A stretch of DNA of 42,364 nt, taken from an uncultured Spirochaetales bacterium (GTDB lineage: Bacteria > Spirochaetota > Spirochaetia > Treponematales > JBGSOB01). The notes under the pieces are model-generated. The model made no database searches. It had not been told where the DNA came from and was given only the letters and a program-made list of their open reading frames with translations. Below are positions 1 to 13,295 of the stretch, piece by piece (positions within the stretch are counted from its first letter, which is position 1; the number at the start of each line of letters is the position of its first letter). The stretch spans positions 276 through 42,639 of the forward strand of contig CAZIEI010000009.1 of NCBI GenBank assembly GCA_964538705.1, given 5' to 3'. Both the position numbers and the translations under genes were made by a program.

Positions 1-138
1 TGGAAGCCTCGATGGGACCTCGCGATCGCCCTCGAAAAGAGCGTCGCTTGGGAAAAAGCGCGGTTGTCCGGAGAATCTCCCGCGAGCGTATGCGCGAGGC
101 AGATCGGCGAGTACGCGGAGGCCGGAGAAAAGGAATGA
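1..138 (+). CDS. rfbG: 3' end of a CDP-glucose 4,6-dehydratase-like gene (5' part lies upstream of the window)
   Basis: Frame +1 is open from base 1 to TGA at 136-138 and reads WKPRWDLAIALEKSVAWEKARLSGESPASVCARQIGEYAEAGEKE. The W-x-PRW-x-L ... V-x-W ... LSG ... I-x-x-Y pattern matches my recollection of the C-terminal tail of enterobacterial RfbG/DdhB. The stop overlaps the next start (ATGA 135-138). It is absent from the ORF track because it has no start in the window. Confidence 0.5.
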   Translation, partial: WKPRWDLAIALEKSVAWEKARLSGESPASVCARQIGEYAEAGEKE

Positions 139-1175
139 ACCGGATCCTGCGAGAGGACTTCCAGGATATCTTCGCCTCCCTCGAAGGGCGCTCGGACGCG
201 TTCCGCGGAAAGCGCGTCTTCATGACCGGGGGCACGGGCTTCATCGGCTCTTGGCTCACGGGGGCTTTGCTGTGGGCCAATCGGGAAGCGCGCCTCGGAA
301 TGCGGTTGACCCTCTTGAGCCGCGATCCCGAAGCCTTCAAGCAGAAGCGGCCCGAGATCGCCTCGCTCGGTGAGATCGAATTCGTGAAGGGCGACGTCAG
401 GACTTTCGATCCCGCGGAAATTGAGGCGGACCTCGTGGTGAACGGCGCCACGGAAGCGAGCGCGACGCTCAACGCCGAGGCGCCGCTCCTCATGATGGAC
501 ACCATCGTGGAGGGCGCGCGGCGCGTCTCGGAGATCAAGGCTGGAAGGACGCTCTTCCTGAGTTCCGGCGCAGTGTACGGGAAGCCGCCAGCGGGTTTGA
601 GGGTATTCCGCGAGGACTACGAGGGCGCTCCGTCTTCACTCGATCCGGCGCAGGCTTACGGCGTCGCGAAACGCCTCGCCGAGCTCTATACCGTATGCGC
701 CGCTAAGAAGAACGGCTGCGATGCCGTAATAACGCGCTGCTTCGCCTTCGTCGGCCCGTACTTGCCGCTCGACGCGCATTTCGCCATCGGGAATTTCATC
801 CGGGACGGGCTTTCCGGAAAGACGATCAGGATCAACGGGGACGGGAAACCGAAGCGGAGTTATATGTACGCCGCGGACATGGCCAAGGCGTTATTGCTTC
901 TGCTAATCGACGGGAAGCCCGGCGATGCGTACAACGTCGGTTCCGGCGAAGCCGTCTCCATAGCCGAGCTCGGCGACGCGGTATCGAGCGCGTTCGGAGC
1001 GGCTCCCGTGGAAGTCCTCGGGCAGTCGAGGCCGACGGACAGGAACCAGGATTACCTGCCAGATATCTCGAAGATCGAGGCGGAATTCCCTGAAATGAGA
1101 AATAGGCCCCTGTCCGAAGCGATCGCGCGAACGAGGGATTATCACGTGGAGGAACGACACGTTGGACATCATTGA
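135..1175 (+). CDS. NAD(P)-dependent sugar-nucleotide epimerase/reductase (extended SDR family)
   Basis: Rossmann motif GGTGFIGSWL near the N-terminus and catalytic YxxxK (AYGVAKRLAE). Start trimmed from 12 to the ATG at 135 (MNRILRED..), preceded by GGAGAAAAGG; the R-rich 41 aa upstream in the track ORF overlap the previous gene's tail. Confidence 0.8.
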   Translation: MNRILREDFQDIFASLEGRSDAFRGKRVFMTGGTGFIGSWLTGALLWANREARLGMRLTLLSRDPEAFKQKRPEIASLGEIEFVKGDVRTFDPAEIEADLVVNGATEASATLNAEAPLLMMDTIVEGARRVSEIKAGRTLFLSSGAVYGKPPAGLRVFREDYEGAPSSLDPAQAYGVAKRLAELYTVCAAKKNGCDAVITRCFAFVGPYLPLDAHFAIGNFIRDGLSGKTIRINGDGKPKRSYMYAADMAKALLLLLIDGKPGDAYNVGSGEAVSIAELGDAVSSAFGAAPVEVLGQSRPTDRNQDYLPDISKIEAEFPEMRNRPLSEAIARTRDYHVEERHVGHH

Positions 1176-1205
1176 GATGGCGCGATTTATCAACGGAGCG
1201 GCCGC

Positions 1206-1862
1206 ATGAGCGCATACCGGATCGTAGCGTTCGACCTCGACGGGACCCTCATGGACACCTCCGAGGGGATCTTTTCCGCGGCGATCGCCGCTGCCGCGGA
1301 GCTCGGATTGCCGCGGCCGGGGTCGGATTCACTGCGCCGTTTCATCGGGCCCCCTATCCGTATGTCTTTCATGGATGAGTTCCGGCTCGATGCGGAGGCG
1401 GCGACGAAGGCGGTGGAGGTTTTCCGGAGCCATTATCTCGGAGGGGAGATGTACAAGGCGGCGCCGTACCCCGGCATAGTCGACGCTCTCGGCCGGCTCC
1501 GTGCGAAGGGCATCAGCCTCAGGGTGGCGACATACAAGCGCGAAGACATGGCGATCGCGATCCTGGAGAGGTTCGGCATGAGCGGACTCTTCGAATCGAT
1601 CCGGGGCGCGGACGCGGAGAACAAAATGAGCAAGACCGACATCATCATGTTGGCCGTGCCGGAAATCTCGCGGACCGGTACCGGCGGGATCGCTTATGTC
1701 GGGGATGCGGAATCGGACGCGTCGAGCGCGGCTGAGCTGGGATTGGATTTTTTCGCTGCATTGTACGGATTCGGCTTCAAGGATGAACGGAACCCTTCGC
1801 TCGCCTCATGCTCCGGAATGGCCAGGAACGCGTCGGATATAGCACGGATTTTCGCATTATAA
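1206..1862 (+). CDS. HAD-superfamily phosphatase (phosphoglycolate-phosphatase-like subfamily)
   Basis: HAD motif I FDLDGTLMDT at the N-terminus and motif IV-like YVGDAESD; typical ~218 aa size; G/C-rich third codon positions. Confidence 0.8.
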   Translation: MSAYRIVAFDLDGTLMDTSEGIFSAAIAAAAELGLPRPGSDSLRRFIGPPIRMSFMDEFRLDAEAATKAVEVFRSHYLGGEMYKAAPYPGIVDALGRLRAKGISLRVATYKREDMAIAILERFGMSGLFESIRGADAENKMSKTDIIMLAVPEISRTGTGGIAYVGDAESDASSAAELGLDFFAALYGFGFKDERNPSLASCSGMARNASDIARIFAL

Positions 1863-1883
1863 GGGCTTTAGGGGGAATCGAAT

Positions 1884-2963
1884 ATGAATAGAGAATACTT
1901 CGAGGATTTATTCGTCTTGGAACTGGCCAACAACCATTGGGGAAAGGTCTCGCGCGGCCTCAAGATCATCCAGGACTATTCAAAAGTAGTCAGGTTCAAT
2001 AACGTCCGCGCGGCCATAAAGCTGCAGATCCGGGACGTCGACAATTTCATCCACAAGGACTTCAAAGACCGGAGCGATATACGGTACATCAAGAAGACCC
2101 TAGAAACGCAGATATCCAAGCAGGATTACGCCGCGCTCCTCGACGCGATCAGGAAGGGCGGCTGCATAACTATGGCCACGCCGTTCGACGAGGCGTCGGT
2201 CGAAACGTGCGTGGAGCTCGGGGTCCAGATCATCAAGCTCGCGAGCTCGGATCTCAACGACTGGGTCTTGATAGAGAAAATCGCATCCACGAGGAAGCCG
2301 GTGATCGTCTCGACGGGCGGGGTATCGGTCAAGGACCTCGACGATCTCGTGACCTTCTTCGAGAACAGGAACATACCGATGGCGATAAACCATTGCGTAT
2401 CGATCTATCCCGCCGAGGACAACGAACTCGAGATGAACCAGATCGATTTCCTCAAGAACAGGTATCCGAACCACACTATCGGATACTCGACGCACGAGTA
2501 CCACGATTGGACCACGTCAATCACGATCGCCTACGCGAAGGGCGCCAGGACTTTCGAGCGCCACATCGACATCGCGGAGGAGGGGTACGAGGTCTCCAAG
2601 TACTGCTCGTTGCCGGAACAGATCGACCAATGGTTCAAGAGCTACCGGAAGGCCGCCGAGATGTGCGGCGCGCCGGGCACCCAGATACGGATTCCTCCAG
2701 AGAAGGAAACTCGGTACCTTGAAGCCCTCGTCAGGGGTGTCTACGCGGCGAGGGATCTGCCCGCCGGATTCGTCCTGAGCGATAAGGACGTGTACCTCGC
2801 GATACCCCTGCAGAAGGGGCAGATATCGTGCCGCGAGCTCATGAGGGGCGAGGTGCTCCTCAAGCCGGTGAAGAAGGACGATCCGATCATGATCGACATC
2901 ATCGATAGCCCGTACGCGTACAATGACGCGCTTAAGATGCACATATTCGAAAGGGGCCTGTGA
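1884..2963 (+). CDS. NeuB-family PEP-condensing sugar synthase (N-acetylneuraminate/pseudaminate/legionaminate-synthase-like) with C-terminal SAF domain
   Basis: Motifs LELANNHWG (cf. IAEIGxNHNG), ATPFDEASVE, IKLASSDLNDW, VSTGG and NHCVSIYP. C-terminal SAF-like ARDLPAGFVLSDKDV. RBS AGGGGGA lies upstream. Confidence 0.75.
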   Translation: MNREYFEDLFVLELANNHWGKVSRGLKIIQDYSKVVRFNNVRAAIKLQIRDVDNFIHKDFKDRSDIRYIKKTLETQISKQDYAALLDAIRKGGCITMATPFDEASVETCVELGVQIIKLASSDLNDWVLIEKIASTRKPVIVSTGGVSVKDLDDLVTFFENRNIPMAINHCVSIYPAEDNELEMNQIDFLKNRYPNHTIGYSTHEYHDWTTSITIAYAKGARTFERHIDIAEEGYEVSKYCSLPEQIDQWFKSYRKAAEMCGAPGTQIRIPPEKETRYLEALVRGVYAARDLPAGFVLSDKDVYLAIPLQKGQISCRELMRGEVLLKPVKKDDPIMIDIIDSPYAYNDALKMHIFERGL

Positions 2964-4774
2964 GCAACATGGTACGCGTTTCCGACTACATCGCGTCGCG
3001 CCTGCGCGAAGCGGGGATCATCGACGTTTTCATGCTGACGGGCGGCGGCGCGATGCACTTGAACGACGCGCTCGGAAACGCCCCGGGCCTCAACGTGACG
3101 TTCTGCCACCATGAGCAGGCCTGCGCTATCGCCGCGGAGGGATACGCCCGGGCGAGTGGAAGGCTCGCGGCGGTGAACGTGACGACGGGGCCGGGCGGCC
3201 TCAACGCCCTCACCGGAGTCATGGGGCAATGGACGGACTCCGTGCCCGCCGTGTACCTCTCCGGGCAGGTTCGTTACGACACGACCGTTTACGCGAATTC
3301 CGGGAAGGGCATCAGACAGGTCGGGGATCAGGAATTGCCGATCGTCGATATAGTGAGGCCGATGGTCAAATACGCGGTCGTGCTCAAGGACGCGAAGGAT
3401 TCCAGGAAGGTCATGGATACGGCCCTCCGGTTGGCGACCGAAGGCCGGCCCGGCCCGGTATGGATCGACGTGCCCATGAACGTGCAGTCGGCCCGGATAG
3501 ATCCGGATTCCCTCGAAGGCGAGACGCGAGATGACGGCGAGGCCCGGCTCGACGATCCGGCCGAGGCGGCCAGGAGGATATATTCGATGCTGAACGCGGC
3601 CGAGCGGCCGGCCGTGATCGCCGGCCACGGCGTGCGATTGTCCGGGCAGATCGATAATCTAAAGAAATGGACGAACGGCGCCTGCTTGCCGGTCCTGACG
3701 ACGTTCAACGGCTTCGACGCGGTGGAGGACGACGACCCGTGCTTCATCGGGAGGATCGGGACTATCGGCAATAGAGCGGGCAATTTCGTGCTCCAGAACG
3801 CCGATCTCGTCGTGTGCCTTGGGACGCGGAACAATATACGGCAGATCAGCTATAACTGGGAAAATTTCGCGCGATCCGCGAAAAAAGTCGTTATCGATAT
3901 CGACGCCGCCGAACTCGAGAAACCGACTATCCGACCGGACGTCGGATTCGCGGCCGACCTCCGCGGGTTAATTCCGGAGCTCCTTAAGCTCATGGACGGT
4001 ACCGTTCCGGAAAAGCGCATGAAGTGGATGGAGTGGGCGAGGGAACGGCGCGCGAAGAATCCGACGTGGCCCGCCGACAAGGCTGTCGCAAGGGATATCG
4101 ATCCATACGCGTTCTGCAGGGCGTTGAGCGACGCCCTGCCCGAAGGCGCGATACTGGTATCGGGAAACGCGACCCCGAGCATCGCTTACCTACAATCCGG
4201 AAAATGCAAGCCGAGGCAGCATGTGATCTGGAATTCGGGCTGCGCCGCCATGGGGTACGATCTTCCCGCGGCGATAGGCGCATGCGTCGGATCCGGTAAG
4301 AAGGACGTGATCTGCATTACCGGCGACGGAAGCATACAGATGAACATCCAGGAATTGGCGACGATCGCCTATCGGCGTCTCCCGATCAAGATCATCTGCT
4401 TCAATAACGGCGGCTATATATCGATCAAGCAGACCCAGGACAGCTTTTTCCCCGGAAGAAGGGTGGGAATCGGGCCCGAGTCCGGCGTCGGTTTCCCCGA
4501 CATGCAGAGGATAGCGGCCGCGTACGGCATTCCCCGCATGTCGATCCGGAACGGCCGGGCCGTCGAGGCCGGAATACGGAAGGTCCTGCGGAGCGATGGA
4601 CCGATCTTCTGTGAAGTCATGCTGCCCCATGACTACGTCTATTCACCCAAGCTGTCTTCCGAGAAGAAGCCCGACGGCAGGATGGTCTCCAAGCCGCTCG
4701 AGGACATGTACCCGTTCATGGATCGGGAAGAATTCCTTTCCAATATGATCGTGCCTCCGATCGAGGAGCGGTGA
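2960..4774 (+). CDS. Thiamine-diphosphate-dependent enzyme, acetolactate-synthase large-subunit / YerE-like family
   Basis: 604 aa. N-terminal PYR domain (VFMLTGGGAMHLNDAL, NVTTGPGGLNALTGV). Canonical ThDP motif GDGSIQMN-x23-NNGGY. GTG start overlaps the upstream stop (GTGA 2960-2963); alternative ATG at 2969. Confidence 0.8.
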   Translation: MSNMVRVSDYIASRLREAGIIDVFMLTGGGAMHLNDALGNAPGLNVTFCHHEQACAIAAEGYARASGRLAAVNVTTGPGGLNALTGVMGQWTDSVPAVYLSGQVRYDTTVYANSGKGIRQVGDQELPIVDIVRPMVKYAVVLKDAKDSRKVMDTALRLATEGRPGPVWIDVPMNVQSARIDPDSLEGETRDDGEARLDDPAEAARRIYSMLNAAERPAVIAGHGVRLSGQIDNLKKWTNGACLPVLTTFNGFDAVEDDDPCFIGRIGTIGNRAGNFVLQNADLVVCLGTRNNIRQISYNWENFARSAKKVVIDIDAAELEKPTIRPDVGFAADLRGLIPELLKLMDGTVPEKRMKWMEWARERRAKNPTWPADKAVARDIDPYAFCRALSDALPEGAILVSGNATPSIAYLQSGKCKPRQHVIWNSGCAAMGYDLPAAIGACVGSGKKDVICITGDGSIQMNIQELATIAYRRLPIKIICFNNGGYISIKQTQDSFFPGRRVGIGPESGVGFPDMQRIAAAYGIPRMSIRNGRAVEAGIRKVLRSDGPIFCEVMLPHDYVYSPKLSSEKKPDGRMVSKPLEDMYPFMDREEFLSNMIVPPIEER

Positions 4775-4834: not shown

Positions 4835-5917
4835 ATGGGCGGCATGAAGGTCCTGGCCTGCCTCCTCAAATACGACTATGGCGTTCCCGCGCGCGGCGAA
4901 TCCGGGGAGAAGCTCGTGATGGCGCCCGCGATGGAGACCGCCGGCGCCGAGGTCGCAACGTTCTGGCTCGAAGAGAATGGCTATCCCGGAGACATGGACG
5001 GGCTGCAGGCCAAGATCATCCGAGAGGCGGATCGGGTGAAGCCGGACCTCATCTATTTCCAGCTCATGCGGAACGAGGTGCGGAACGAGACGCTCGACGC
5101 ATTGAAGTCGAAATGGCTCACCGTGAATTTGTTCTGCGACGATCAATGGCGGTTCGAGGATTACTCCCGGTTCGTGGCGCCGCATCTCGGCGCGTCGATC
5201 ACCGTGGACAAGTTCAAGGTCGACGGGTATAGGGATCTCGGCTGCCGCGTCCTGAGATCGCAATGGGGAAGCCCGCGGTACGTCAGGGGCCTCGATCCGT
5301 CCAAGGCGGATTACCTCTACGACGTCAGCTTCATCGGGGGCAGGAACGCGACCCGCGAATGGACCGTCAGGGCATTGGCCAAAGCCGGCATCCAGGTAGC
5401 CTGCTTCGGGCATGGATGGCCGAACGGGCGCGTGGATATCCCGAAGATGGAAGAGATATTTTACAGGTCGAAAATCAATCTGAACTTGTCGAATTCCATC
5501 CCCTCGCTGCCTTCATTCAGGCGTTTCGTATTCGGGGACACGCTGAGAGCTTTTCTCGGTATGAACGCCCGGCGCTACGGTTCGTGGGCGAAAAGTATCA
5601 GAAAAGCCTTAGGGAACTTGTACTCGATGGCATTCAGCAAGAAACGGCGCGAGTCCATCAAAGCCCGTAATTTCGAGATACCCGCCGCGGGCGGATTCCA
5701 GCTCAGCCAATTCGCCCTCGAGATCGACGATTACTTCGTCCCGGGGAAGGAGATCGCCTTGTTCGCGACGATCGACGAGCTCATCGCGCAGGCGAAGTAC
5801 TACCTCAAGCATGAGGATGAGCGGATCGCGATTTGCCGAGGCGGGTATGCGCGATCGGAGAAGTACTCCTACGCGGATCGTTTCAAGGCCGTATTCGAGG
5901 AGCTGGGCTTGGCATGA
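4835..5917 (+). CDS. CgeB-family / Glyco_trans_1_2-type putative glycosyltransferase
   Basis: The C-terminal region FEIPAAGGFQLSQF..GKEIALFATIDELIAQAKYYLKHEDERIAICRGGYARS resembles the CgeB/DUF3880-type GT-B C-terminal domain, and the gene sits among sugar genes. Alternative start ATG 4844. Confidence 0.55.
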   Translation: MGGMKVLACLLKYDYGVPARGESGEKLVMAPAMETAGAEVATFWLEENGYPGDMDGLQAKIIREADRVKPDLIYFQLMRNEVRNETLDALKSKWLTVNLFCDDQWRFEDYSRFVAPHLGASITVDKFKVDGYRDLGCRVLRSQWGSPRYVRGLDPSKADYLYDVSFIGGRNATREWTVRALAKAGIQVACFGHGWPNGRVDIPKMEEIFYRSKINLNLSNSIPSLPSFRRFVFGDTLRAFLGMNARRYGSWAKSIRKALGNLYSMAFSKKRRESIKARNFEIPAAGGFQLSQFALEIDDYFVPGKEIALFATIDELIAQAKYYLKHEDERIAICRGGYARSEKYSYADRFKAVFEELGLA

Positions 5918-7788
5918 AAAAAATATCCATAGTCGTCGACAAGTACTACCAGAAGAATCGGCTCTTCGACCTCTCCGATCCGAAGGTCAACCGCGACGAT
6001 TGCATGTATCCCTTCTACGCGCTCAAGCGCAGGTGCGCCGAAATGGGATATGACCTCTCGACGAACGACATCAATACGCCATCGGAGTCATGCCTCGTCC
6101 TCTACAACGACATGCCCGCGACGTTGCCCGACCCGGCAGACGCGCTAAAATCCGTGTTGCTGGCTTGGGAGAGCCCGCTCGTCAAGCCGCAAAACTTCGA
6201 TCGCGTTTCGCACGAGCGTTTCGAGAGGGTATATACCTACGACGACCGCCTCGTGGACGGAAAGAAATACCGCAAGCTCTTCTACTCGCAGCGATTCCCC
6301 GAATCGCTCGATTTCCATCTGAAATCCATGCCGGAAGGATTCATGTGCGTCATCGCGGGCAATAAGAGGAGCGCGCATCCGCTCGAGCTCTACTCCGAAC
6401 GGCTCAGGACAATCAAATGGTATGAGGAGAACCATCCGGGAGAACTGGATCTCTACGGATTCGGGTGGAACGAGCGCGTTTTCCGGGGGCCCAAGATCGT
6501 GCGGGCCTTGAACAGGATAGGTTTGGCTAGAAAGGCGTTCGTGAGGGACAAGCGGCCGAGCTATCGGGGCAAGGCCGATGATAAAAGAAGCGTATTCGGA
6601 CGGTACCGATTCGCGCTCTGTTATGAGAATATCCGCGATATCCCGGGGTACATTACGGAAAAGCTGCTCGACGCCATGCTCTCCGGATGCGTGCCGATTT
6701 ATTGGGGCGCGCCGAACGTCTCGGACTTCGTACCATCGGATTGCTTCATCGACAGGCGGAATTTCAAGGATGAGGAGAGCCTCTATCGCTTCCTTTCCGG
6801 GATGAAGGAACGCGAGCATCGTTCGTATCGTGAGAGGATGTCCGCGTTCCTTAAAAGCGAGGCGGCGCGACCGTTTAAAACCGAGGGCTTCGTCGACGAG
6901 ATGACGGGAATGGTGCGGGAGCGCGAGTCCGGTCGGGGACACCGCAAATACCTCCTCACGATAGCCATCCCGACATTCAATCGAGCTGAATATCTTTCGG
7001 AATTGCTCGACAGTATGATTCCGCAAGTCGCGCGCGCGAACCGGGAATTTGCGGCCGTTCAGCTCCTCATAAGCGATAATTGCTCGAGCGATGGAACGCC
7101 GGAGGTCATTGAAAGCAAGCTCCGGGGCAAGCCCTGGGTATCGCTCTACCGTAACGACCGGAACGTGGGCGGAGACGAGAATTTCATCCTCTGCGTAGAG
7201 CGAGCGGAAGGAGATTACGTCTGGCTTTTCGGCGACGACGACATTCTCCTGGAGGACGGCATCGCCAGGATTATACGCGCGTTGAGCCGTTATTCCCCCG
7301 CGCTGGTCATCTGCGCGAGCAATTCGCCGCGCTCCGCTATTTTCCCTTCATATAGGAGCGTCCTGGGGCATTTCCTCCGCCGGAGCCTCGTTTTCCCGTG
7401 GAATCATACGCTCATAACCTCCAACGTGTTCCTGAAGGACGGTTTCCGATGCGATGTCGCGAGGGGTATGCGCCATACGAATTACGGCCACATGTACGCG
7501 ATGATGGATATGCTGAGGGAGAGGTCGAACCGGATCGTGGTGCTCTCCAAGAATAAGGCGGCATTCGATCTTCGGAAAGTGCGGGCGCCATTCGAAGTCG
7601 AGCCGCAGAACATAGAGAAAAAAATCGTCAATTACGTCGTCGCGCTCTCGAAGGCTTTGGAATACTCCCCTCCCGCGATAGGCGTCAATTTCTTCTTCCG
7701 GGTGTATAACAGGATGAGGGGCCTCGCATTACCGCTCGCGAGGCTCATAAAGCGTAGCAGCGAGTCGCTCCTGGGGTGGCCGAAGTGA
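5914..7788 (+). CDS. Two-domain glycosyltransferase: N-terminal GT10 alpha-1,3/4-fucosyltransferase-like domain fused to a C-terminal GT2 domain
   Basis: The N-half carries YRFALCYENIRDIPGYITEKLLDAMLSGCVPIYWGAPNVSDFVPSDCFIDRRNF. This matches the GT10 signature recalled from Helicobacter FutA (FNLCFENS..GYVTEKI.DA....IPIYWG.P.V..DFNP.SF). The C-half (from ~6945) has GT2 hallmarks LLTIAIPTFNRAEYL, SDNCSSDGT and LFGDDDIL. Start trimmed to ATG 5914 (MKKISIVV), overlapping the upstream stop (ATGA). Confidence 0.75.
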   Translation: MKKISIVVDKYYQKNRLFDLSDPKVNRDDCMYPFYALKRRCAEMGYDLSTNDINTPSESCLVLYNDMPATLPDPADALKSVLLAWESPLVKPQNFDRVSHERFERVYTYDDRLVDGKKYRKLFYSQRFPESLDFHLKSMPEGFMCVIAGNKRSAHPLELYSERLRTIKWYEENHPGELDLYGFGWNERVFRGPKIVRALNRIGLARKAFVRDKRPSYRGKADDKRSVFGRYRFALCYENIRDIPGYITEKLLDAMLSGCVPIYWGAPNVSDFVPSDCFIDRRNFKDEESLYRFLSGMKEREHRSYRERMSAFLKSEAARPFKTEGFVDEMTGMVRERESGRGHRKYLLTIAIPTFNRAEYLSELLDSMIPQVARANREFAAVQLLISDNCSSDGTPEVIESKLRGKPWVSLYRNDRNVGGDENFILCVERAEGDYVWLFGDDDILLEDGIARIIRALSRYSPALVICASNSPRSAIFPSYRSVLGHFLRRSLVFPWNHTLITSNVFLKDGFRCDVARGMRHTNYGHMYAMMDMLRERSNRIVVLSKNKAAFDLRKVRAPFEVEPQNIEKKIVNYVVALSKALEYSPPAIGVNFFFRVYNRMRGLALPLARLIKRSSESLLGWPK

Positions 7789-9353
7789 ACGCAAGGAAGA
7801 ACTACCTGATGACCTTCCTGAGCGGGTTCGGAGGAGCGGTCGTCTCGACGGGCCTCGGCTTGGTATCGGCGCCGCTTTCGCTCTCCTATTGGGGCGAGGA
7901 GCGTTTCGGGCTATGGGCCATCCTGCTCTCCGTCCTCTCGTACCTCAGCGTGTCGAATTTCGGGATCGGGCAGGCGGCCACGACCCTGATCGGGAAGAAC
8001 AACGAGTACTCGGATAAGCGGAGGATCCTGGGACGTTCCGCGATAGCCCTGGCGGTATCGATAGCCGCCAGCGTGGCCATCCTCGTGACGATCAGCGCCT
8101 TCTATCCCGGATGGCATAGGCTGCTCGGAAAGATCCCCGCGAACCTCGAAGCCGAAGCGAAACGGACGAGCGTCCTCATCATGGCGTTCTTCTTCGCCAA
8201 CCTGCCCTTCACGCTCGTCTCCAGCGCCCTCGTCGGGACGCAGAGGGCCTATCTCGAGAACGTATTCCAGATAGGCGGTACGGTCGCGAATTTCCTCGGC
8301 CTCGTTTCGGTCATCCTCCTCAGGCTGTCATTGCCGTGGTACGCGGTCATGAACGGATTATTCTCGCTCGCGCTGAATGCCGCGAAGGCGGTCGTCGCGT
8401 TCACGGGAAAGGGCGCGTCCTTGCGGAGCGCCGGCGATCGTACCTCGGACGCGCCGATGCCCGCGTCTCCTGATGCCGGGTATCGCACGCTCCTGCGGAC
8501 GAGCGCGCGCTTCTTCCTGATATGGCTCGCGGCGACCCTGGTATGGAATACCGACAATTTCGTCGTATCGAACGTCATAGGGCTCAAGGAGGTCACGCCC
8601 TATTCCATCACGTTCAAATTCTACAACCTCATATTCACCTGCATTTTCATCGTCAATAATTCGCTCCTCCCCCTCATGGCGAAGGAATACGGAGCGGGTA
8701 ACTGGGAATGGATATCGAAATACTATAGAAGCTTCACGGTGATCGGGTCGTCCCTCGGGGGATTGGCACTCGTCGGCGGCCTCTCGTTCGGCCACGATTT
8801 CGTGCTGCTGTGGACCGGCCCCAAGGGATACGCCGGAACGGGCGTCCTCGTCTTCCTCGGGCTCTATTCGTACCTGCTTTCGATGGTGAATTTCAATTCA
8901 GGCATCATCAACACCTTCAATTACACGAAGGGGACATGGCTCATCGCCTTCGCCGAAGGCGGGACGAAGATAGGGGCGTCCATACTGCTGGGCAGGAGAT
9001 TCGGGCTCCCCGGGATCGCCGCGGGCACGATGCTCGGTTCGTTCCTTGCGCCCGCTTGGATCTGCCCTATTATCATCTACTTAAGAAGCCAAAAACGATT
9101 GCGTTTCCAGTGGAAGAGAATGATTTTGCATTTTATTGGATGCGTAGCGCCTTGCGGACTACTCGCCGCTTTAATTAATGTAAACATCAAATCAACGGTT
9201 ATCCGGATTCTGCTTGGCATTGTCCTAGTGTTCATTTACTGTCTGGGGACTTTTTTCACTTGGCCTATGGACATCAAGAAGACATTCTCAACGCTCCTAT
9301 CAGGAGCCCTCAATATCATAAGGGGGCGAGGCGGGATCATTGAAAAGGTATAA
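7776..9353 (+). CDS. wzx: Polysaccharide flippase (Wzx / MOP superfamily), copy 1
   Basis: About 12 hydrophobic segments and a polysaccharide-locus context. The GTG start at 7776 overlaps the upstream gene's end (alternative GTG 7785 as GTGA, or ATG 7809). Composition drops from GC-rich to AT-rich at ~9060, inside the gene. Confidence 0.7.
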   Translation: MAEVNARKNYLMTFLSGFGGAVVSTGLGLVSAPLSLSYWGEERFGLWAILLSVLSYLSVSNFGIGQAATTLIGKNNEYSDKRRILGRSAIALAVSIAASVAILVTISAFYPGWHRLLGKIPANLEAEAKRTSVLIMAFFFANLPFTLVSSALVGTQRAYLENVFQIGGTVANFLGLVSVILLRLSLPWYAVMNGLFSLALNAAKAVVAFTGKGASLRSAGDRTSDAPMPASPDAGYRTLLRTSARFFLIWLAATLVWNTDNFVVSNVIGLKEVTPYSITFKFYNLIFTCIFIVNNSLLPLMAKEYGAGNWEWISKYYRSFTVIGSSLGGLALVGGLSFGHDFVLLWTGPKGYAGTGVLVFLGLYSYLLSMVNFNSGIINTFNYTKGTWLIAFAEGGTKIGASILLGRRFGLPGIAAGTMLGSFLAPAWICPIIIYLRSQKRLRFQWKRMILHFIGCVAPCGLLAALINVNIKSTVIRILLGIVLVFIYCLGTFFTWPMDIKKTFSTLLSGALNIIRGRGGIIEKV

Positions 9354-9431
9354 ACCCCCGGGAATGACAACAATTAGCGGTATGGCGGAATTCCCGGAGC
9401 ATCGCTGAATAAACGATTTAATCTCCGTTGA

Positions 9432-11018
9432 ATGAACATTTCAGGAGTGAGCATGGGATTGACGAGCAAGAGCCAATACATAAGAAATTTCATCAGTGGC
9501 ATTGGCGGAGCCGTCATATCTACGACATTAGGCTTGGTTTCCGCACCGCTCGCGTTATCGTATTGGAAAGAAGAGCGATATGGATTATGGGCCTTGATCT
9601 TATCCGTCCTGACTTACCTCCATGTTTCGAATTTCGGGATCGGGCAAGCCGCCGCCGTATTGATGGCGAAGAATTGCGATTTAAAAGATAAAAAAACCAT
9701 ATTACGGAAAAGTTTTTCATTGATGCTGATATCGATGGCGACTGTCGCGGTAATCGTGATAATTATTGCGACGTTCACGCCCCAGTGGATACGCTTGTTG
9801 GGGAAGATCCCCGTCGACCTGGAGTCGGAAGCGCGCACGACATGTATTTTTATTGTATTGTTTTATTTCCTTAATCTACCGTTTTCCTTAATGTCGAGTC
9901 TTCTCGTCGGAACACAGCGGGCATACATAGATAACGTTTTCCAAATAATGACGACAGTATGCAATTTCATAGGATTAGTCTCGGTGATCTTGTGCAAATT
10001 GACAATGCCATGGATGGCGATCTTGAATGGCTGCTTCATCTTGATCGTGAATTTGGTTAAAACAGCCGTTGCTTATTCCGGTTCGGAGAGAGGAGAGTTG
10101 TTAGGCGGTGCCAGTACTGTCGCCCCGTTGACTGGAGAAAACGAAGACGTGAAATATAAAAATATCCTTAGCGCGAGCCTTAGGTTCTTTTTAATATGGT
10201 TGGTGAATAATATATTATGGAATTCCGATAATTTCATCATATCCAACCTCATCGGCTTGAAGGAGGTCGCTTCTTATTCACTGACCTTCAAATTTTATAA
10301 TTTATTGTTTTCTTGCATATTTATTTTCAATAATTCGATGCAACCAATATTTTCCAAGGAATTCGGCGCTAATAACTGGACTTGGATAAGTAAAAGGTAT
10401 AGGAGTTTTACCGTATTGAGCGGCTTCCTCGGAGGGCTCGCCGCCATGGGCGGCATTCTCTTCGGTGAAGAATTCATCATGATATGGACGGGTAAAACCG
10501 GTTATGCGGGATTATTGGTACAGATTTTACTTGGGGCCTATTCATATTCGATATCGACTTCGCATTTTTGCCAACAAACGCTCGGAGCGTTCAATTATAC
10601 TAAATGGCTATGGAGCGTCATATTAGTCGAAGTCATAGTACGCGTAGCGTCGTCGGTGATTCTGGGAAGGATATTGGGACTAGGCGGGATCGCGGCCGGG
10701 ACCTTGTTGGGATCATTGGCGGGGCCTTTCTGGATGTATCCCTTCCTCGCAAAAAGAAGGAGCGAGGGCAGACTAAAAATCCACTGGAAAGGAAGCGCGT
10801 TGCATTTCTGCGCCGTTCTATTGCCGCTCATGGCGGTTTCGGTAATCATGAAGGTTCATGTGGACAACGGGATCGCGAATCTGCTGATCGGAATTGCTCT
10901 GACTCTGGCGTACCTAACGTTGTCTTGGATCATCTCGCCCAAAGAGGTTAAAAACGAAATATCGTTGGCGTTGCGAGAGATGGCAAAGAAACTAGCAGGA
11001 AATCGTCGATTGACTTAG
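9432..11018 (+). CDS. wzx: Polysaccharide flippase (Wzx / MOP superfamily), copy 2, AT-richer paralog of copy 1
   Basis: Colinear with copy 1 over the whole length, e.g. FISGIGGAVISTTLGLVSAPLALSYWKEERYGLWALILSVLTYLHVSNFGIGQAA versus FLSGFGGAVVSTGLGLVSAPLSLSYWGEERFGLWAILLSVLSYLSVSNFGIGQAA. It uses A/T-ending codons. Alternative start ATG 9453. Confidence 0.75.
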   Translation: MNISGVSMGLTSKSQYIRNFISGIGGAVISTTLGLVSAPLALSYWKEERYGLWALILSVLTYLHVSNFGIGQAAAVLMAKNCDLKDKKTILRKSFSLMLISMATVAVIVIIIATFTPQWIRLLGKIPVDLESEARTTCIFIVLFYFLNLPFSLMSSLLVGTQRAYIDNVFQIMTTVCNFIGLVSVILCKLTMPWMAILNGCFILIVNLVKTAVAYSGSERGELLGGASTVAPLTGENEDVKYKNILSASLRFFLIWLVNNILWNSDNFIISNLIGLKEVASYSLTFKFYNLLFSCIFIFNNSMQPIFSKEFGANNWTWISKRYRSFTVLSGFLGGLAAMGGILFGEEFIMIWTGKTGYAGLLVQILLGAYSYSISTSHFCQQTLGAFNYTKWLWSVILVEVIVRVASSVILGRILGLGGIAAGTLLGSLAGPFWMYPFLAKRRSEGRLKIHWKGSALHFCAVLLPLMAVSVIMKVHVDNGIANLLIGIALTLAYLTLSWIISPKEVKNEISLALREMAKKLAGNRRLT

Positions 11019-11920
11019 AATAAAGCATCTGTGAATTCGGCCATGCTCCCTTCATACCGGATAAGCCTGATATTGGCATATCCCGTTGGCCCAGACATCT
11101 GATTGCCAACCGCGTATGAAATCACGAGATGGTCGCCTCTATCGATCATATCCATATCGCTTGTGTTTATATCCGTCTCCAGGTACTTTGGATCTAAGAC
11201 GATAAGGGGGGATTTTTCGAACTCGGTGAAATTTACGGTTCTCGACACTCGTTTTCTCCAATATCCTGGTGCGCTTTCTAGCCAAAAAATATAATAATAG
11301 CCCTCGAAATATCGGATACATGGACAGGCCGAGTACTCGTCGGGATTCAAGGCCGTTCCTGACATGCTCCACGTATCCAAATCAGATGAGAAAAGAAATC
11401 TTTCGGAGAAAGGAACTTCCCCCGGAGTCGCATACTCATATGCAAGGACGAATTCCTCGGTAGTTGGATTGTAGGTTACGCTGGTATTAAAGAGTTTAAT
11501 CGATGAATCGGCTGTAAAGATGGTGGTTTTCGACGTCCAGTTAATGAGGTCTTCGCTCGATATCATAGAAATCGAATTGCCCGGACTAGCCCAATCCGAG
11601 GTACCGAATACATAGCATCGCCCGTTGAATATGATGCTGGAGCATAAGCCCATGTCATCAACCGCGACTGTCCTGATTTCCTGCAGCGCGGATTCGTCCT
11701 CGGATAGGCGAAAAATTGTAAAGCCGCTCCCATGAGTGTCCTGCCGCGAATATGAAAATAAATAAACCTCGCCGTTGAAATCCAGCAATGAATTTTCCAT
11801 CGCGTTGTAGAGGGTTACCGGAAGCCTCGTGTACGAGATGTCCGGAGATGCTGTTTCGGACAACCCGCAACCCGAAAATGCGAGGATGGAGAATATAAAA
11901 ACGATATGCGTTTTCGTCAT
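11015..11920 (-). CDS. Lipoprotein of unknown function, possibly a beta-propeller glycoside-hydrolase-like fold
   Basis: Signal peptide plus lipobox MTKTHIVFIFSILAFSGC. Strong SD GAAGGAGGTGAAATC directly upstream. The body is beta-rich and aromatic-rich (..GRCYVFGTSDW.., ..YYYIFWLES..); the fold call is a weak guess. Low GC. Its stop overlaps the stop of wzx copy 2 by 4 nt (convergent). Confidence 0.65.
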   Translation of the reverse strand: MTKTHIVFIFSILAFSGCGLSETASPDISYTRLPVTLYNAMENSLLDFNGEVYLFSYSRQDTHGSGFTIFRLSEDESALQEIRTVAVDDMGLCSSIIFNGRCYVFGTSDWASPGNSISMISSEDLINWTSKTTIFTADSSIKLFNTSVTYNPTTEEFVLAYEYATPGEVPFSERFLFSSDLDTWSMSGTALNPDEYSACPCIRYFEGYYYIFWLESAPGYWRKRVSRTVNFTEFEKSPLIVLDPKYLETDINTSDMDMIDRGDHLVISYAVGNQMSGPTGYANIRLIRYEGSMAEFTDALF

Positions 11921-11984
11921 GATTTCACCTCCTTCAGGAACCGCGGTAGATACAACATGATAACTGCCCGTGACTCGGGCTTTA

Positions 11985-12875
11985 TCACGTCTGGCTGATG
12001 AAATAATTCTTCAGGGTCTGGCGTCTCGCTTCTACTGATGGGAGTAGCCGGATGGTGTCATCGCAATAGAGTTCGTGTCCGGGGAATATGGATTTTTTCT
12101 CCCTTATGCACTTTGCGATGTATTCCTCGCTATCATGGCCTTTGTGCTCTACTTCGTGTGCGTACGCGAGGAGCTTTTTCCTGGCGGACGCGGCGTCGCC
12201 CAGCCAGGAGTGGTGGAAGCCGAGGAAGTCGTCGATGCAGTGGACATCGTTCAGAAGCCAGCCGCGCTCGCCGCGCTTCCTGAGTTCGTCGATGGGCATC
12301 CCGAGGGTATTAAAGCGCTTCCCGGTCATCATGAAGAGGCGGTAACTGTAATCGGGCGCGCCCGCCCAGTTCTTGGAGAAAAGGTTGAAATAGAACAGGG
12401 TGAGCCTCAGTTTGCAAGTGACGATGCCCCGCTTCCTTGTCTCTTGGATCATCTCCTGAACGCGCCGGGGGTCGAGGATCTCGTCGATGTCGGAAACGAC
12501 GACGATATCGTCATCGTTCGGCTTTATAAACGAGGAAGCGGCATTCCGCTGGACAGCGTCATTATGCCACGGCGGTGTAGTAAGGGTCGTCCGGACATAT
12601 TCGTTCCTCGAGAGCCTGTTGCGGGCTAGGAGGACCTTGCCGAAAAAATCGTTCCGGACGAACGCCTTCCCCGCGTCCATGGGATGATAGCGGACGATGG
12701 ATCGCGATGCGAGCGTTTCATCGAAGCAATAATCCTTCTGCGTTCCTTTAAATGTCATGTTTGCTTCGGTTATGTGCAATTCGTCTATCCAGGATGCGGC
12801 CTCGTTGATCGCTATCATGGCGATGACGTTCTCGTCGAAGAAGAGGGTGTTATAAAAAATTCTATCGGCCTTCAT
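11985..12875 (-). CDS. GT17-like glycosyltransferase (beta-1,4-mannosyl-glycoprotein GlcNAc-transferase / GnT-III family homolog)
   Basis: The N-terminus FFDENVIAMIAINEAASWIDELHITEANMTFKG and the later PWHNDAVQRN...DDDIVVVSDIDEILDP follow the GT17 pattern as I recall it: F.nE.d.L..R..el...VD.FvivE...TF.G, then W..E..QRn...D.i.isD.DEIp. Confidence 0.55.
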   Translation of the reverse strand: MKADRIFYNTLFFDENVIAMIAINEAASWIDELHITEANMTFKGTQKDYCFDETLASRSIVRYHPMDAGKAFVRNDFFGKVLLARNRLSRNEYVRTTLTTPPWHNDAVQRNAASSFIKPNDDDIVVVSDIDEILDPRRVQEMIQETRKRGIVTCKLRLTLFYFNLFSKNWAGAPDYSYRLFMMTGKRFNTLGMPIDELRKRGERGWLLNDVHCIDDFLGFHHSWLGDAASARKKLLAYAHEVEHKGHDSEEYIAKCIREKKSIFPGHELYCDDTIRLLPSVEARRQTLKNYFISQT

Positions 12876-13012
12876 TAACCTTCATCCATGGTTCGGAAGC
12901 GAAATGGATTCCTGGAGACATGCTCGGGCTCCCTTCCTTTTCAGGAACGGTCGTATGGAAATCGGAGCTCGACGATAGTCGATCCCTCGACTTCAAAGCC
13001 CGAGGCCGATTG

Positions 13013-13026
13013 ACCGGCGCGCCGGT
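13013..13026. repeat. Perfect 14-nt GC palindrome ACCGGCGCGCCGGT followed by TTT on the + strand
   Basis: Read directly; it lies in the 420-nt non-coding region between the divergent GT17-like gene and the GT2 operon. Confidence 0.9.
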
Positions 13027-13100
13027 TTCGGTCGCAACGCCATTATAGCTAAGTGCAGGTAGGAAATCAATCGCGGAGTCGCGAGCTCGACCCGCTACGA

Positions 13101-13184
13101 GGATTGGATAACGAAACGCCGATTTGATCCGTGGATTCGGACCTGGACACCTAAAAGGCCGATCTCGAGGGTGGGGATTGGATA
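13101..13184 (+). repeat. 10-nt direct repeat GGATTGGATA (13101-13110 and 13175-13184), with a related GTGGATTCGG at 13131-13140
   Basis: Read directly; start-to-start spacing is 74 nt, upstream of the GT2 operon start. Candidate regulator binding sites; function unknown. Confidence 0.6.
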
Positions 13185-13295
13185 TCCGGGCTGCTCAACG
13201 TCCTCGGCGGCGAACGCCGTTTATTGATGCTTTCGATGATCTACGATACATTATACGCAAGCTATCCGAAGCAGGAACAGGTGCCCGAGGATCCG

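Follow-up and report, generated by a model that had tools for sequence, protein, structure and literature searches.

What does a divergent relative of the sialic acid synthases do between a putative reductase gene and the gene for a thiamine diphosphate (ThDP)-dependent enzyme in a polysaccharide locus? The question was raised by a stretch of 42,364 nucleotides (the window) from an uncultured Spirochaetales bacterium. The source is a metagenome-assembled genome (MAG) that is about 75% complete, so the absence of a gene elsewhere in this genome is no proof. The evidence presented below suggests that the NeuB-like enzyme probably forms the donor with which C4 of a CDP-activated 3,6-dideoxyhexose is extended by a long hydroxylated side chain.

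Gene order and the upstream sugar genes

A preliminary description of the window had placed five consecutive, partly overlapping genes on the + strand in positions 1 to 4774. All five were confirmed at the coordinates that open the following list, and the catalytic motifs of the last four are intact.

1–138, +, 3' end of a CDP-glucose 4,6-dehydratase gene (ddhB/rfbG; TIGR02622); the preceding part of the gene is split between contig C111 and the 265 nt that come before a 10-N gap
135–1175, +, extended SDR, 346 aa (PF01370, 121 bits; TGGTGFIG and YGVAK (YxxxK) motifs)
1206–1862, +, HAD-IA phosphatase, 218 aa (PF13419, 86 bits; DLDGT and GDAESD (GDxxxD) motifs)
1884–2963, +, divergent NeuB-family PEP-condensing enzyme with a SAF domain, 359 aa (PF03102, 133 bits)
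2960–4774, +, YerE/JanthE-like ThDP-dependent carboligase, 604 aa, three TPP domains (alternative start, ATG 2969)
4835–5917, +, glycosyltransferase-like protein (Glyco_trans_1_2; PF13524, 82 bits), 77% identical in sister genome G001
5833–7788, +, two-domain glycosyltransferase, GT10 fucosyltransferase-like plus GT2 (PF00852, PF00535), start uncertain
7776–9353, +, Wzx-like flippase with a MATE/polysaccharide transporter fold (PF01554; weak NF041503 WZX_like match)
9432–11018, +, second Wzx-like flippase (PF01943, PF01554), in a low-GC (46%) block of the GC profile
13224–17707, +, remaining polysaccharide locus: GT2, GT4, Wzy_C-type polymerase/ligase and GT4 (Pfam matches)

The ddhB stop codon and the SDR start codon overlap as ATGA, the SDR-HAD and HAD-NeuB-like gaps are 30 nt and 21 nt, respectively, and the NeuB-like and ThDP genes overlap by 4 nt. 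A search of positions 1 to 4774 yielded no terminator-like site on the + strand. The five genes are best read as a single operon within a Wzx/Wzy-type polysaccharide locus. A single gene across the open frame 3–1175 was rejected, as frame 1 (1–138) stops at the TGA at 136–138 and the SDR starts at the ATG at 135.

By itself, the 45-aa ddhB tail was weakly diagnostic (TIGR02622, E = 0.004). Its identity was secured by the 265 nt upstream of the gap on the same contig (C9:31-267; TIGR02622, 60 bits, profile positions 227–308), by the end of contig C111, which encodes the DdhB N terminus (profile positions 1–221, 346 bits against a cut-off of 278), and by sister genome G001, in which ddhB is whole and contiguous (91% nucleotide identity). 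The contiguous sister contig also confirmed the C111-to-C9 junction. Thus, the earlier assignment of the fragment to a CDP-glucose dehydratase held. The preliminary description had also pointed to the upstream sequence as the place to look for rfbF/ddhA and E1/E3 genes. Directly upstream on C111 we found ddhA (432 bits; cut-off, 300), E1/RfbH (667 bits; cut-off, 423), and a small E3-like reductase that lacks the ferredoxin domain of AscD. With the joined contig, the CDP-4-keto-3,6-dideoxyglucose route is therefore complete.

The enzymes of the cassette

The ThDP protein has HEQ and GDGS motifs and a C-terminal P-K/R...LEDM tail. Its identification as an acetolactate synthase (ALS) was rejected: ALS models gave 324 to 326 bits against cut-offs of 538 to 738, the ALS alignments stopped short of the C-terminal tail, and a true ALS is encoded elsewhere in the genome (C12, 744 bits). 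The closest solved relative was JanthE of Janthinobacterium sp. HH01 (PDB 8rph, 8rpi, and 8rpj), with 369 bits to 8rph over residues 2–595. This match extended into the C-terminal tail, where both proteins have LED and the Lys of the P-K-L motif; identity was roughly 40%, as judged by eye from the alignment. The two proteins differ in the ThDP motif, which is CDG in JanthE and the canonical GDG in the window protein. JanthE is a ketone-accepting carboligase with a broad 2-oxo-acid donor range that includes pyruvate (PMC12188165). The window protein was no nearer to PpYerE (236 bits) than to plant AHAS (252 bits). With a JanthE-like protein that scored far below every ALS cut-off and with the upstream ddhA, E1, and E3-like genes, two earlier suggestions were supported, namely, that the ThDP enzyme is YerE-like and that CDP-glucose 4,6-dehydratase feeds the branching pathway, of the YerE type, to which it belongs.

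The NeuB-like protein shares the NeuB TIM barrel, the C-terminal SAF domain, the metal-binding His residues, and the PEP-binding Lys and Ser residues with Neisseria meningitidis NeuB (NmNeuB; 1xuz) and with NeuB, PseI, and LegI in general. However, it scored far under the equivalog cut-offs of NeuB (119 versus 400 bits) and PseI (110 versus 340 bits), and its match to NmNeuB was about 75 bits. The top PDB match was 3g8r, annotated as "probable spore coat polysaccharide biosynthesis protein E" (223 bits over residues 8–337; roughly 45% identity by eye from the alignment), which shares the ANNH and STHE motifs and likewise has no equivalent of Arg314. We collected 331 relatives, and the best 80 of these were 68 to 76% identical to the window protein and came from many phyla. 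In all 80, the counterparts of metal ligands His215 and His236 and of Glu25, Lys53, Lys129, Ser132, Ser154, and Ser213 (NmNeuB numbering) were invariant. In contrast, the ManNAc-binding Arg314 was replaced by Ile or Val, and Asp247 and Asn184 were each replaced by Ser or Ala. Because the fold, the metal ligands, and the PEP-binding residues are conserved, condensation of PEP with an aldehyde is the expected chemistry. We propose that the protein is a 4-hydroxy-2-oxo-acid (3-deoxy-2-ulosonate) synthase and the source of the side chain.

The genomic setting also differs from that of NeuB, PseI, and LegI: no NeuA, NeuC, or aminosugar genes are nearby, and the subfamily, conserved as it is across phyla, is tied to ThDP and ddh genes. 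As the preliminary description had stated, no NeuA-like CMP-activating gene is visible in the window; specifically, no CTP_transf_3 (NeuA/KdsB-type) gene was found there, and the sole match in the genome was weak and KdsB-like (contig C120). In two other loci (L058 and L061), the nearest CTP_transf_3 gene was >500 kb from the NeuB-like gene, and in three further genomes, whose contig numbering could not be matched, none was seen near it. A separate, more canonical NeuB gene is present on C99.

The SDR scored below every NCBIfam cut-off and had homologues in 36 of the 80 NeuB-like loci. It is a candidate for the reductase of the side-chain C1' ketone, the role of YerF and ErwF. The HAD protein is phosphoglycolate phosphatase-like but under the family cut-off (TIGR01449, 86 bits versus 180 bits). 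An HAD gene was present in only about 15 of the 80 loci, which indicated that the phosphatase step is not universal.

Co-location and a cassette swap in a sister genome

Most loci were fetched via the NeuB-like gene, which biased the sampling of both the co-location counts and the ThDP tree; within this sample, a ThDP homologue was found in 67 of the 80 NeuB-like loci and lay ≤10 kb from the NeuB-like gene in 55 of the 56 loci whose flanks both extended for ≥5 kb, across many phyla, and the tree placed the window protein in a 9-row clade whose members all have a NeuB-like gene. Two members of this clade also have an aldolase, and at least six of the eight other members have the NeuB-then-ThDP gene order of the window. 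The tree did not include YpYerE, ErwE, or MMAR_2332. Genes of the dideoxyhexose route were also frequent (ddhC in 51 and ddhA in 45 of the 80 loci), usually in the same operon orientation, and about a dozen loci with NeuB-like and ThDP genes had no ddh genes within 10 kb.

The most informative evidence came from sister genome G001. Its gmd, fcl, ddhC, ddhA, ddhB, and SDR products are 89 to 99% identical to those of the window genome, and the SDR itself is 89% identical despite the different donor cassette. Between the SDR and glycosyltransferase genes, the HAD, NeuB-like, and ThDP genes are replaced by genes for a ThDP enzyme, an HMGL-like protein, and an HAD protein. The ThDP and HAD proteins of G001 are only 45% and 43% identical to their window counterparts, and the best families of the 535-aa HMGL-like protein are 4-hydroxy-2-oxovalerate aldolases of the DmpG/BphI type. 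Together with the co-location in 55 of 56 loci, this swap favored the alternative offered in the preliminary description, in which the NeuB-like and ThDP enzymes serve one route.

Aldolases were also found in ThDP and ddh loci that lack a NeuB-like gene: an HpcH/HpaI aldolase gene adjoins in L093, L094, and L099. In L098, where no ddh genes were detected in the locus, an HMGL-like and HAD pair lies about 3.4 kb from the ThDP gene. The aldolase cassettes of G001, L094, and L098 are all accompanied by an HAD gene. Two loci (L044 and L083) have both an aldolase and a NeuB-like gene, and the two are thus not strictly exclusive.

Proposed pathway and competing readings

In the published scheme for acyl-branched sugars, an aldolase makes a 4-hydroxy-2-oxo acid, which ErwE, MMAR_2332, or MyGE adds to CDP-4-keto-3,6-dideoxyglucose before a reductase finishes the sugar (PMC9306805). 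The examples are erwiniose (ErwI/J/E/F), caryophyllose (MMAR_2331/2332), and gastriose (MygI/MyGE/MygF) (Steitz et al. 2022, PMC9306805). As in the window genome, CDP-4-keto-3,6-dideoxyglucose genes lie by genes for a reductase, a YerE-like ThDP enzyme, and an enzyme capable of forming a 4-hydroxy-2-oxo acid, clustered within a surface-glycan locus. This aldolase arrangement is the one found in G001, L093, L094, and L099. The window cassette differs in that it has a predicted PEP-dependent NeuB-family synthase instead of a pyruvate aldolase (BphI/DmpG or HpcH/HpaI) and in that it includes an HAD phosphatase. The yersiniose A pathway of Yersinia pseudotuberculosis (YerE/YerF) likewise combines an ALS-superfamily ThDP enzyme with ddh genes and an NAD(P)H reductase and branches a CDP-3,6-dideoxy-4-ketohexose at C4. 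However, YerE builds its C2 branch from pyruvate and does not require a donor synthase, whereas in the window genes for a putative dedicated keto-acid synthase and a phosphatase lie between those for the reductase and the ThDP enzyme.

In the pathway that we propose, DdhA, DdhB, E1 (RfbH), and the small E3-like flavin reductase would provide CDP-4-keto-3,6-dideoxy-D-glucose, as judged from family membership, with three of the four proteins above curated cut-offs. The NeuB-like enzyme would join PEP to a small, possibly phosphorylated aldehyde. The resulting 4-hydroxy-2-oxo acid (a 3-deoxy-2-ulosonate) would have the carbon skeleton expected from a pyruvate aldolase but would be formed irreversibly. 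The HAD protein may take a phosphate off either this product or the precursor aldehyde. On the model of ErwE, MMAR_2332, and MyGE, the ThDP enzyme would then decarboxylate the keto acid and add the acyl anion to the CDP-sugar at its C4 ketone, and the SDR would reduce the new side-chain ketone. The aldehyde used would set the side-chain length; the simplest candidates are glyceraldehyde-3-phosphate, erythrose-4-phosphate, or their free forms. The downstream glycosyltransferases, flippases, and polymerase would incorporate the sugar into a polymer in which fucose is probably present as well.

The close linkage between the NeuB-like and ThDP genes also fits the opposite order. In that reading, the CDP-ketosugar would first be given a short unit, derived from pyruvate or glyoxylate, by the ThDP enzyme; the NeuB-like enzyme would then use PEP to lengthen the branch or to attack the C4 ketone itself, and its substrate would be a nucleotide-sugar instead of a free aldehyde. 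The absence of the ManNAc-binding residues reveals a change of acceptor but does not identify the new one. To our knowledge, NeuB, KDO8P, and DAHP synthases take free-sugar or sugar-phosphate aldehydes and not ketones or nucleotide-sugars, which counts against this order. It also leaves no role for the recurring HAD protein, since the cassette would have no obvious phosphorylated intermediate. Steitz et al. name such an order as a formal alternative for the aldolases, but ErwE, the one case tested, did not accept pyruvate and required a preformed 4-hydroxy-2-oxo acid (PMC9306805). We consider this order unlikely.

The main inference of the preliminary description, two separate products, seemed slightly less likely still. 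Here, the ThDP enzyme and the SDR would make a yersiniose-like C2-branched CDP-sugar from pyruvate, and the same polymer would receive an ulosonic or nonulosonic acid made independently by the NeuB-like and HAD proteins. A NeuB enzyme paired with an HAD phosphatase is the logic of the Neu5Ac-9-P and Kdn-9-P routes, pyruvate is among the donors of JanthE, the closest solved relative (PMC12188165), and the KdsB-like gene on C120, though weak, could be counted in its favor. The YerE-type branching half of that description stood, but the separate acid was not favored: the window has no CMP-transferase gene, the vicinity of the NeuB-like gene showed none either in five other genomes, two of which had readable distances, the NeuB and PseI scores are far below the cut-offs, the Arg314 equivalent is lost, and the more canonical NeuB gene lies separately on C99. 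Two products would also leave the 55-of-56 ThDP co-location across phyla unexplained, and in G001, where an aldolase replaces the NeuB-like enzyme, the ThDP gene is swapped along with it. It is very improbable that the cassette is unrelated to the CDP-sugar, with the NeuB-like, HAD, and ThDP proteins forming a small keto-acid or aldehyde pathway that is simply carried along by polysaccharide loci and the ThDP enzyme serving as a plain decarboxylase or acyloin synthase. The dozen or so loci without nearby ddh genes fit such a pathway, but most loci have ddhC or ddhA, the ThDP clade corresponds to the YerE-like enzymes that the literature describes as accepting ketones, and the genes sit between ddhB/SDR and the glycosyltransferase genes with gaps of ≤30 nt.

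Our literature search found no paper on a NeuB-like donor synthase in the acyl-branched sugar scheme. If the proposed pathway is correct, the locus would represent the published aldolase/ThDP scheme with a new donor synthase, in which a relative of sialic acid synthase replaces the aldolase.

Gene block, ketosugar supply and surrounding polysaccharide locus

The preliminary description had placed five + strand genes at 1-4774 of the window (G000:C9:276-42639). This arrangement was confirmed by open reading frames, Pfam matches and intact catalytic motifs, and the genes were as follows.

1-138, + strand: end of a dehydratase gene, last 45 codons (TIGR02622), in frame 1 with the stop codon TGA at 136-138
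135-1175, + strand: extended SDR, starting with ATG at 135 (PF01370, Pfam)
1206-1862, + strand: HAD phosphatase (HAD_2, Pfam)
1884-2963, + strand: NeuB-like synthase (NeuB and SAF, Pfam)
2960-4774, + strand: ThDP enzyme (three ThDP-enzyme domains, Pfam)

Gaps in the block were at most 30 nt or the genes overlapped, and no terminator-like site was found on the + strand within it. The SDR motifs TGGTGFIG and YxxxK were intact. A single 390-aa gene across 3-1175 was discarded, as that frame consisted of the dehydratase tail plus the SDR, i.e., two genes.

By itself, the 45-aa tail encoded at 1-135 was a weak dehydratase match (TIGR02622, E = 0.004). The CDP-glucose 4,6-dehydratase gene was broken by a contig break and by a 10-N gap (C9:266-275 of the window's contig). 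The end of contig C111, which joins upstream of C9, covered positions 1-221 of TIGR02622 with 346 bits (cut-off, 278); C9:31-267, in the 265 nt before the gap, covered positions 227-308; and window 1-135 covered positions 313-351. In the sister genome, G001, the dehydratase gene was in one piece, and its N-terminal 229 aa were 99% identical. The stretch before the gap, the C111 end and the uninterrupted G001 gene together secured the identity of the dehydratase, so the reading of the fragment at 1..138 as a CDP-glucose dehydratase held. The first ~10 codons of C9 (C9:1-30, PGVRARVVAV) lay off the dehydratase profile and RQHVLEPL, just after them, fitted it; the misfit is probably a contig-end assembly error.

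The C111 end carried, in order, uvrC, gmd (608 bits), fcl, a gene for a Fre-like flavin reductase (243 aa), E1/RfbH, ddhA and the N terminus of ddhB. UvrC matched a MAG named as uncultured Spirochaetales with 99% identity and places the genome in this group. The ddhA product, whose gene adjoined ddhB, scored 432 bits with TIGR02623 (cut-off, 300), and E1 scored 667 bits with NF011936 RfbH (cut-off, 423). Thus, ddhA and E1, two of the genes that the preliminary description had suggested looking for upstream, were present and above equivalog cut-offs, but an E3 gene with a ferredoxin domain was not, and a Fre-like module was found instead. The matches of this 243-aa protein (7763-8494 of L009, the fetched C111 locus) were confined to NAD_binding_1 and to flavin reductases of the Fre type (72 bits); it lacked the [2Fe-2S] ferredoxin domain that classical E3 (AscD/DdhD) has, and the fcl-E1 interval left no room for one. 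The Fre-like protein may be the reductase for E1. Counterparts with 34-47% identity occupied the same position in a few other loci (L017, L019, L025, L058 and L099), G001 also had a homologue (L257), and an E3 gene was absent in most loci.

Downstream of the ThDP gene, to ~17.7 kb, were genes for a GT1-like protein, a fusion of GT10 (fucosyltransferase-like) and GT2, two Wzx-like flippases, a GT17-like protein, a GT2, a GT4, a Wzy_C protein and another GT4. The region is a polysaccharide locus of the Wzx/Wzy type, with GDP-fucose as a further product, and its GC content was 46-59%, compared to 64.7% for the genome. The stretch at 9000-12900, with a GC content of 46-47%, held the second Wzx-like flippase (+ strand), a weakly GH43-like ORF (- strand) and the GT17-like ORF (- strand). 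Window 9067-13296 had no counterpart in G001, and the low-GC block is probably a separate insertion.

The NeuB-like protein and the putative ThDP carboligase

The NeuB-like protein scored 133 bits with PF03102 and 25 bits with the SAF domain, and its equivalog scores were far from the cut-offs for both NeuB (TIGR03569, 119 bits versus 400) and PseI (TIGR03586, 110 versus 340). It matched a structural-genomics entry (3g8r) with 223 bits versus only ~75 for Neisseria meningitidis NeuB (NmNeuB). Residues were mapped to NmNeuB from the printed alignment, and the columns were checked in 80 homologues. His204 and His227, which corresponded to the metal histidines His215 and His236 of NmNeuB, were invariant, and Glu13, Lys46, Lys118, Ser121, Ser143 and Ser202 of the NeuB-like protein were invariant in all 80 homologues. 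In NmNeuB numbering, the invariant counterparts were Glu25, Lys53, Gln55, Lys129, Ser132, Ser154, Tyr186, Ser213 and Glu234. Three NmNeuB residues were changed in the NeuB-like subfamily, namely Glu134 (to Asp), Asn184 (to Ser/Ala) and Asp247 (to Ser/Ala). NmNeuB Arg314 aligned with Ile307, in a column that was Ile in 66/80 and Val in 14/80 homologues. We take the NmNeuB residue roles, including the binding of ManNAc (the N-acetyl sugar) by the SAF-domain Arg314, to be those of the 1xuz literature; the 4ipi and 4ipj entries in the hit list deviated from the wild type at exactly this arginine. Because the PEP and metal residues were invariant and the Arg314 site was replaced, the NeuB-like enzyme is predicted to have retained PEP/metal chemistry and to have lost the sialic-type sugar site.

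The search for CTP_transf_3 (NeuA-type) genes found none in the window, in agreement with the earlier remark that no CMP-activating gene was visible there. The sole hit in the 75%-complete genome was a 227-aa protein on a separate contig (G000:C120:9537-10121; L170 1411-2094, - strand), which scored 44 bits with KdsB models over its N-terminal half only (cut-offs, 155-281) and adjoined a methyltransferase-like ORF. On this score, half-length match and location, it was not convincing as a missing NeuA, but in a genome that is 75% complete the role is only improbable. In five other genomes, three of them with unmatched contig numbering, no CTP_transf_3 gene was seen close to the NeuB-like gene; in L058 and L061, the nearest was >500 kb away.

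A further NeuB + SAF protein, of a more canonical type, was present in the window's genome (G000:C99:738-2150, L265; 206 bits with PF03102), encoded by a 470-aa ORF with a ~130-aa N-terminal extension that lay at a contig start and adjoined mutS2. This protein may be a true synthase of nonulosonic acid with no relation to the locus described here.

The N, M and C Pfam domains were all present in the ThDP protein. HHEQ, with the catalytic Glu, was at residue 50 and GDGS at residue 455, and these motifs were kept in 74-81 of 82 clade members. The protein scored 324-326 bits on acetolactate synthase (ALS) models, below every cut-off (538-738; TIGR00118, 538); it is therefore not a bona fide ALS, an identity that would have undone the preliminary reading. 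A spare ALS was likewise discarded, as a true ALS (744 bits) was encoded elsewhere in the genome, on contig C12. The best solved relative was JanthE (8rph, 369 bits, residues 2-595), compared to 252 bits for the best ALS (plant AHAS) and 236 bits for PpYerE (5ahk). JanthE has been described as a carboligase of the YerE kind that accepts ketones and takes a broad range of 2-oxo-acid donors, with physiological substrates stated to be unknown (PMC12188165, PMC12247030). The window protein shared with JanthE a C-terminal tail with the Lys of a P-K-L motif and LED, but it had a GDG motif where JanthE has CDG. The ThDP gene lay beside CDP-4-keto-3,6-dideoxyglucose genes and a reductase gene, as in most homologous loci; its product is a candidate carboligase for the addition of a 2-oxo acid to the ketosugar.

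In a FastTree phylogeny of ThDP proteins from the fetched loci, in which sampling was biased to NeuB-like loci and the outgroup was impure, the window protein fell into a 9-row clade. All members had a NeuB-like gene, two of them also with an aldolase, and at least six of the eight other members shared the NeuB-then-ThDP order of the window. Among the ThDP homologues of low identity that served as ALS outgroup, two rows had the P-K-L...LED tail and one row had a JanthE-like CDGG motif. Judged by tree placement, the JanthE-like rows were probably L103 (a Methylotenera MAG) and the second ThDP gene of L039 (1258-3048), both of which look like JanthE-type proteins and not ALS. The root position is approximate because the ALS outgroup was impure. 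When the ThDP protein was used in a pattern-based scan, just ~16 true relatives were recovered and the other hits were ordinary ALS genes, so co-occurrence in the reverse direction, from ThDP to NeuB-like, was poorly sampled.

Exchange of the putative donor genes between sister genomes and across phyla

In nucleotide sequence, the G001 UvrC region was 95% identical, and a single 92.8-kb contig of that genome carried the same locus. The encoded proteins compared as follows.

Amino acid identity between window-genome proteins and their G001 counterparts
gmd: 98%
fcl: 98%
E1: 96%
ddhA: 96%
ddhB: 99%
SDR: 89%
ThDP: 45%
HAD: ~43-45%
Glycosyltransferases and flippase: 66-77%

Between the SDR gene and the first glycosyltransferase gene, G001 carried ThDP, a 535-aa HMGL-like protein and HAD, versus HAD, NeuB-like and ThDP in the window. 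The HMGL-like protein had its best NCBIfam and PDB matches among DmpG/BphI-type 4-hydroxy-2-oxovalerate aldolases (90 bits, under the cut-off; 3dxi and 1nvm). ErwI of the erwiniose cluster belongs to the BphI-type aldolase class (PMC9306805), and an aldolase of that class in the cassette slot of G001 indicates that the NeuB-like gene holds the aldolase position. In addition, the ThDP gene was swapped along with the donor gene, as expected if the ThDP donor is the product of its neighbour. No NeuB-like orthologue was found in five related Spirochaetales genomes (best matches, 25-28% identical). The window protein was 75% identical to Terriglobia copies, so the cassette was gained horizontally. 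The lower identity of the downstream glycosyltransferases and flippase (66-77%) is typical O-antigen-locus mosaicism. Two further G001 genes were absent here. One, located between fcl and the E3-like gene, encoded a sulfatase-family protein of 598 aa, and the other, located between E1 and ddhA, encoded a GT87-like membrane protein of 434 aa.

A scan with one genome per species found 331 relatives of the NeuB-like protein, the best 80 of which were 68-76% identical. These 80 came from Acidobacteriota, several proteobacterial classes, Chloroflexota, Patescibacteria, Gastranaerophilales, Verrucomicrobiota, Actinomycetota, Planctomycetota, Omnitrophota, Firmicutes and Spirochaetota. In 67 of the best 80 loci, a ThDP homologue (40-55% identical) was encoded within 10 kb. 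Where the locus extended for 5 kb or more to each side, this was so in 55 of 56 cases, and the one exception contained 793 N. Among the same 80 of 331, ddhC was present in 51 loci, ddhA in 45, an SDR of the window type in 36 and HAD in ~15. A GT2 gene (~330 aa) was directly downstream of the NeuB-like gene in 55/80 loci (L010-L089), a PMT_2 (GT-C) protein was encoded in 12/80, and FkbM-type or large class-I methyltransferases were encoded in many. These neighbours suggest polyprenyl-phosphate sugar transfer and methylation of the branched sugar. The window lacked the downstream GT2, PMT_2 and methyltransferase genes and had Wzx/Wzy-type genes there instead.

Three loci (L093, L094 and L099) combined ThDP with ddhA/B/C and had no NeuB-like gene; in these, an HpcH/HpaI aldolase gene adjoined the ThDP gene, with a HAD gene additionally in L094 and a PfkB kinase gene in L099. 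In L098, genes for a 535-aa HMGL-like protein and a HAD lay ~3.4 kb from the ThDP gene, and the locus yielded no ddh matches. The idea that NeuB-like and aldolase genes strictly exclude each other was discarded, since two Gastranaerophilales loci (L044 and L083) carried both. Among the fetched loci, no isolate with the NeuB-like/ThDP cassette was identified; L094, from Arsenicibacter rosenii, carried the aldolase version, and L016 (Smithella sp. SCADC), an entry without a MAG label, carried the NeuB-like version.

The window HAD scored 86 bits with TIGR01449 (phosphoglycolate phosphatase; cut-off, 180) and had intact DLDGT and GDxxxD motifs; it is a generic HAD-IA phosphatase. HAD was found with all three donor synthase types (NeuB-like, DmpG-like and HpcH), and the window protein was closer to the G001 HAD (~43-45%) than to the HADs of other NeuB-like loci (28-33%). 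Together, these observations suggest that the phosphate sits on a common aldehyde precursor or product, e.g., glyceraldehyde-3-P or erythrose-4-P.

Proposed pathway, alternatives and implications

Bacterial surface glycans contain, as rare components of immunological importance, acyl-branched sugars such as yersiniose, erwiniose and caryophyllose. To our knowledge, the logic of their biosynthesis was not generalised until 2022, the side-chain supplier has always been a pyruvate aldolase, and long-chain C-branched dideoxy sugars have so far been reported from a handful of pathogens. NeuB, KDO8P and DAHP synthases share the reaction PEP + R-CHO + H2O -> R-CHOH-CH2-CO-COO- + Pi. In the scheme of Steitz et al. 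(PMC9306805), ErwE, MMAR_2332 and MyGE use 4-hydroxy-2-oxo acids from a neighbouring aldolase; the acceptors in that work were ketones standing in for CDP-4-keto-3,6-dideoxyglucose, and ErwE rejected pyruvate.

NeuB-type chemistry gives the aldolase-type skeleton irreversibly, and together with the Steitz scheme this led us to the following pathway. The ketosugar would be made by DdhA, DdhB, E1 and the E3-like protein, and the donor by the NeuB-like enzyme with HAD. The ThDP enzyme would then carry out the branching, the SDR would reduce the C1' ketone, and the downstream glycosyltransferases, flippases and polymerase would build the sugar into the polysaccharide. We put the chance that the NeuB-like subfamily is a dedicated PEP-dependent 4-hydroxy-2-oxo-acid synthase feeding YerE-like ThDP enzymes at about even.

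The main inference of the preliminary description was that the locus makes two independent products, with an ulosonic or nonulosonic acid alongside the branched sugar. This is not favoured and seems improbable, given NeuB and PseI scores below the cut-offs, the replacement of Arg314 and the lack of a NeuA-type partner in the window. Its alternative suggestion, that the NeuB-like and ThDP enzymes act on one route, is favoured by the co-location in 55/56 loci and by the aldolase swap in G001. The opposite order, in which the NeuB-like enzyme would work on the nucleotide sugar, is also unlikely, though slightly less so than two independent products, and a cassette pathway unconnected to the sugar is very improbable.

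The pathway type is already published, and its aldolase version is present even in the sister genome. The literature searched contains no case of a NeuB-family synthase in the role of donor-forming enzyme, and no paper linking a NeuB-like enzyme to branched sugars was found there. The locus contributes a complete ddh set with an E3-like gene, a clade with NeuB-then-ThDP gene order and a cassette swap between sister strains. If the proposed pathway holds, the sister pair, which differs in essence by the donor cassette alone, already amounts to a natural experiment.

If the proposed pathway is true, long-chain C-branched dideoxy sugars would be widespread among environmental bacteria. The side chain could be exchanged as a cassette made up of a donor synthase (NeuB-like, DmpG-like aldolase or HpcH aldolase) and the ThDP enzyme that goes with it, and this exchange would generate surface-antigen diversity between sister strains. 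The pathway would also suggest a candidate physiological donor class for JanthE-type carboligases, and biocatalysis would gain a way to make functionalised 2-oxo acids that is irreversible and driven by PEP. Finally, a large and widely annotated "sialic acid synthase-like" subfamily would gain a function, and a probable cause of mistaken sialic-acid predictions from metagenomes would be corrected.
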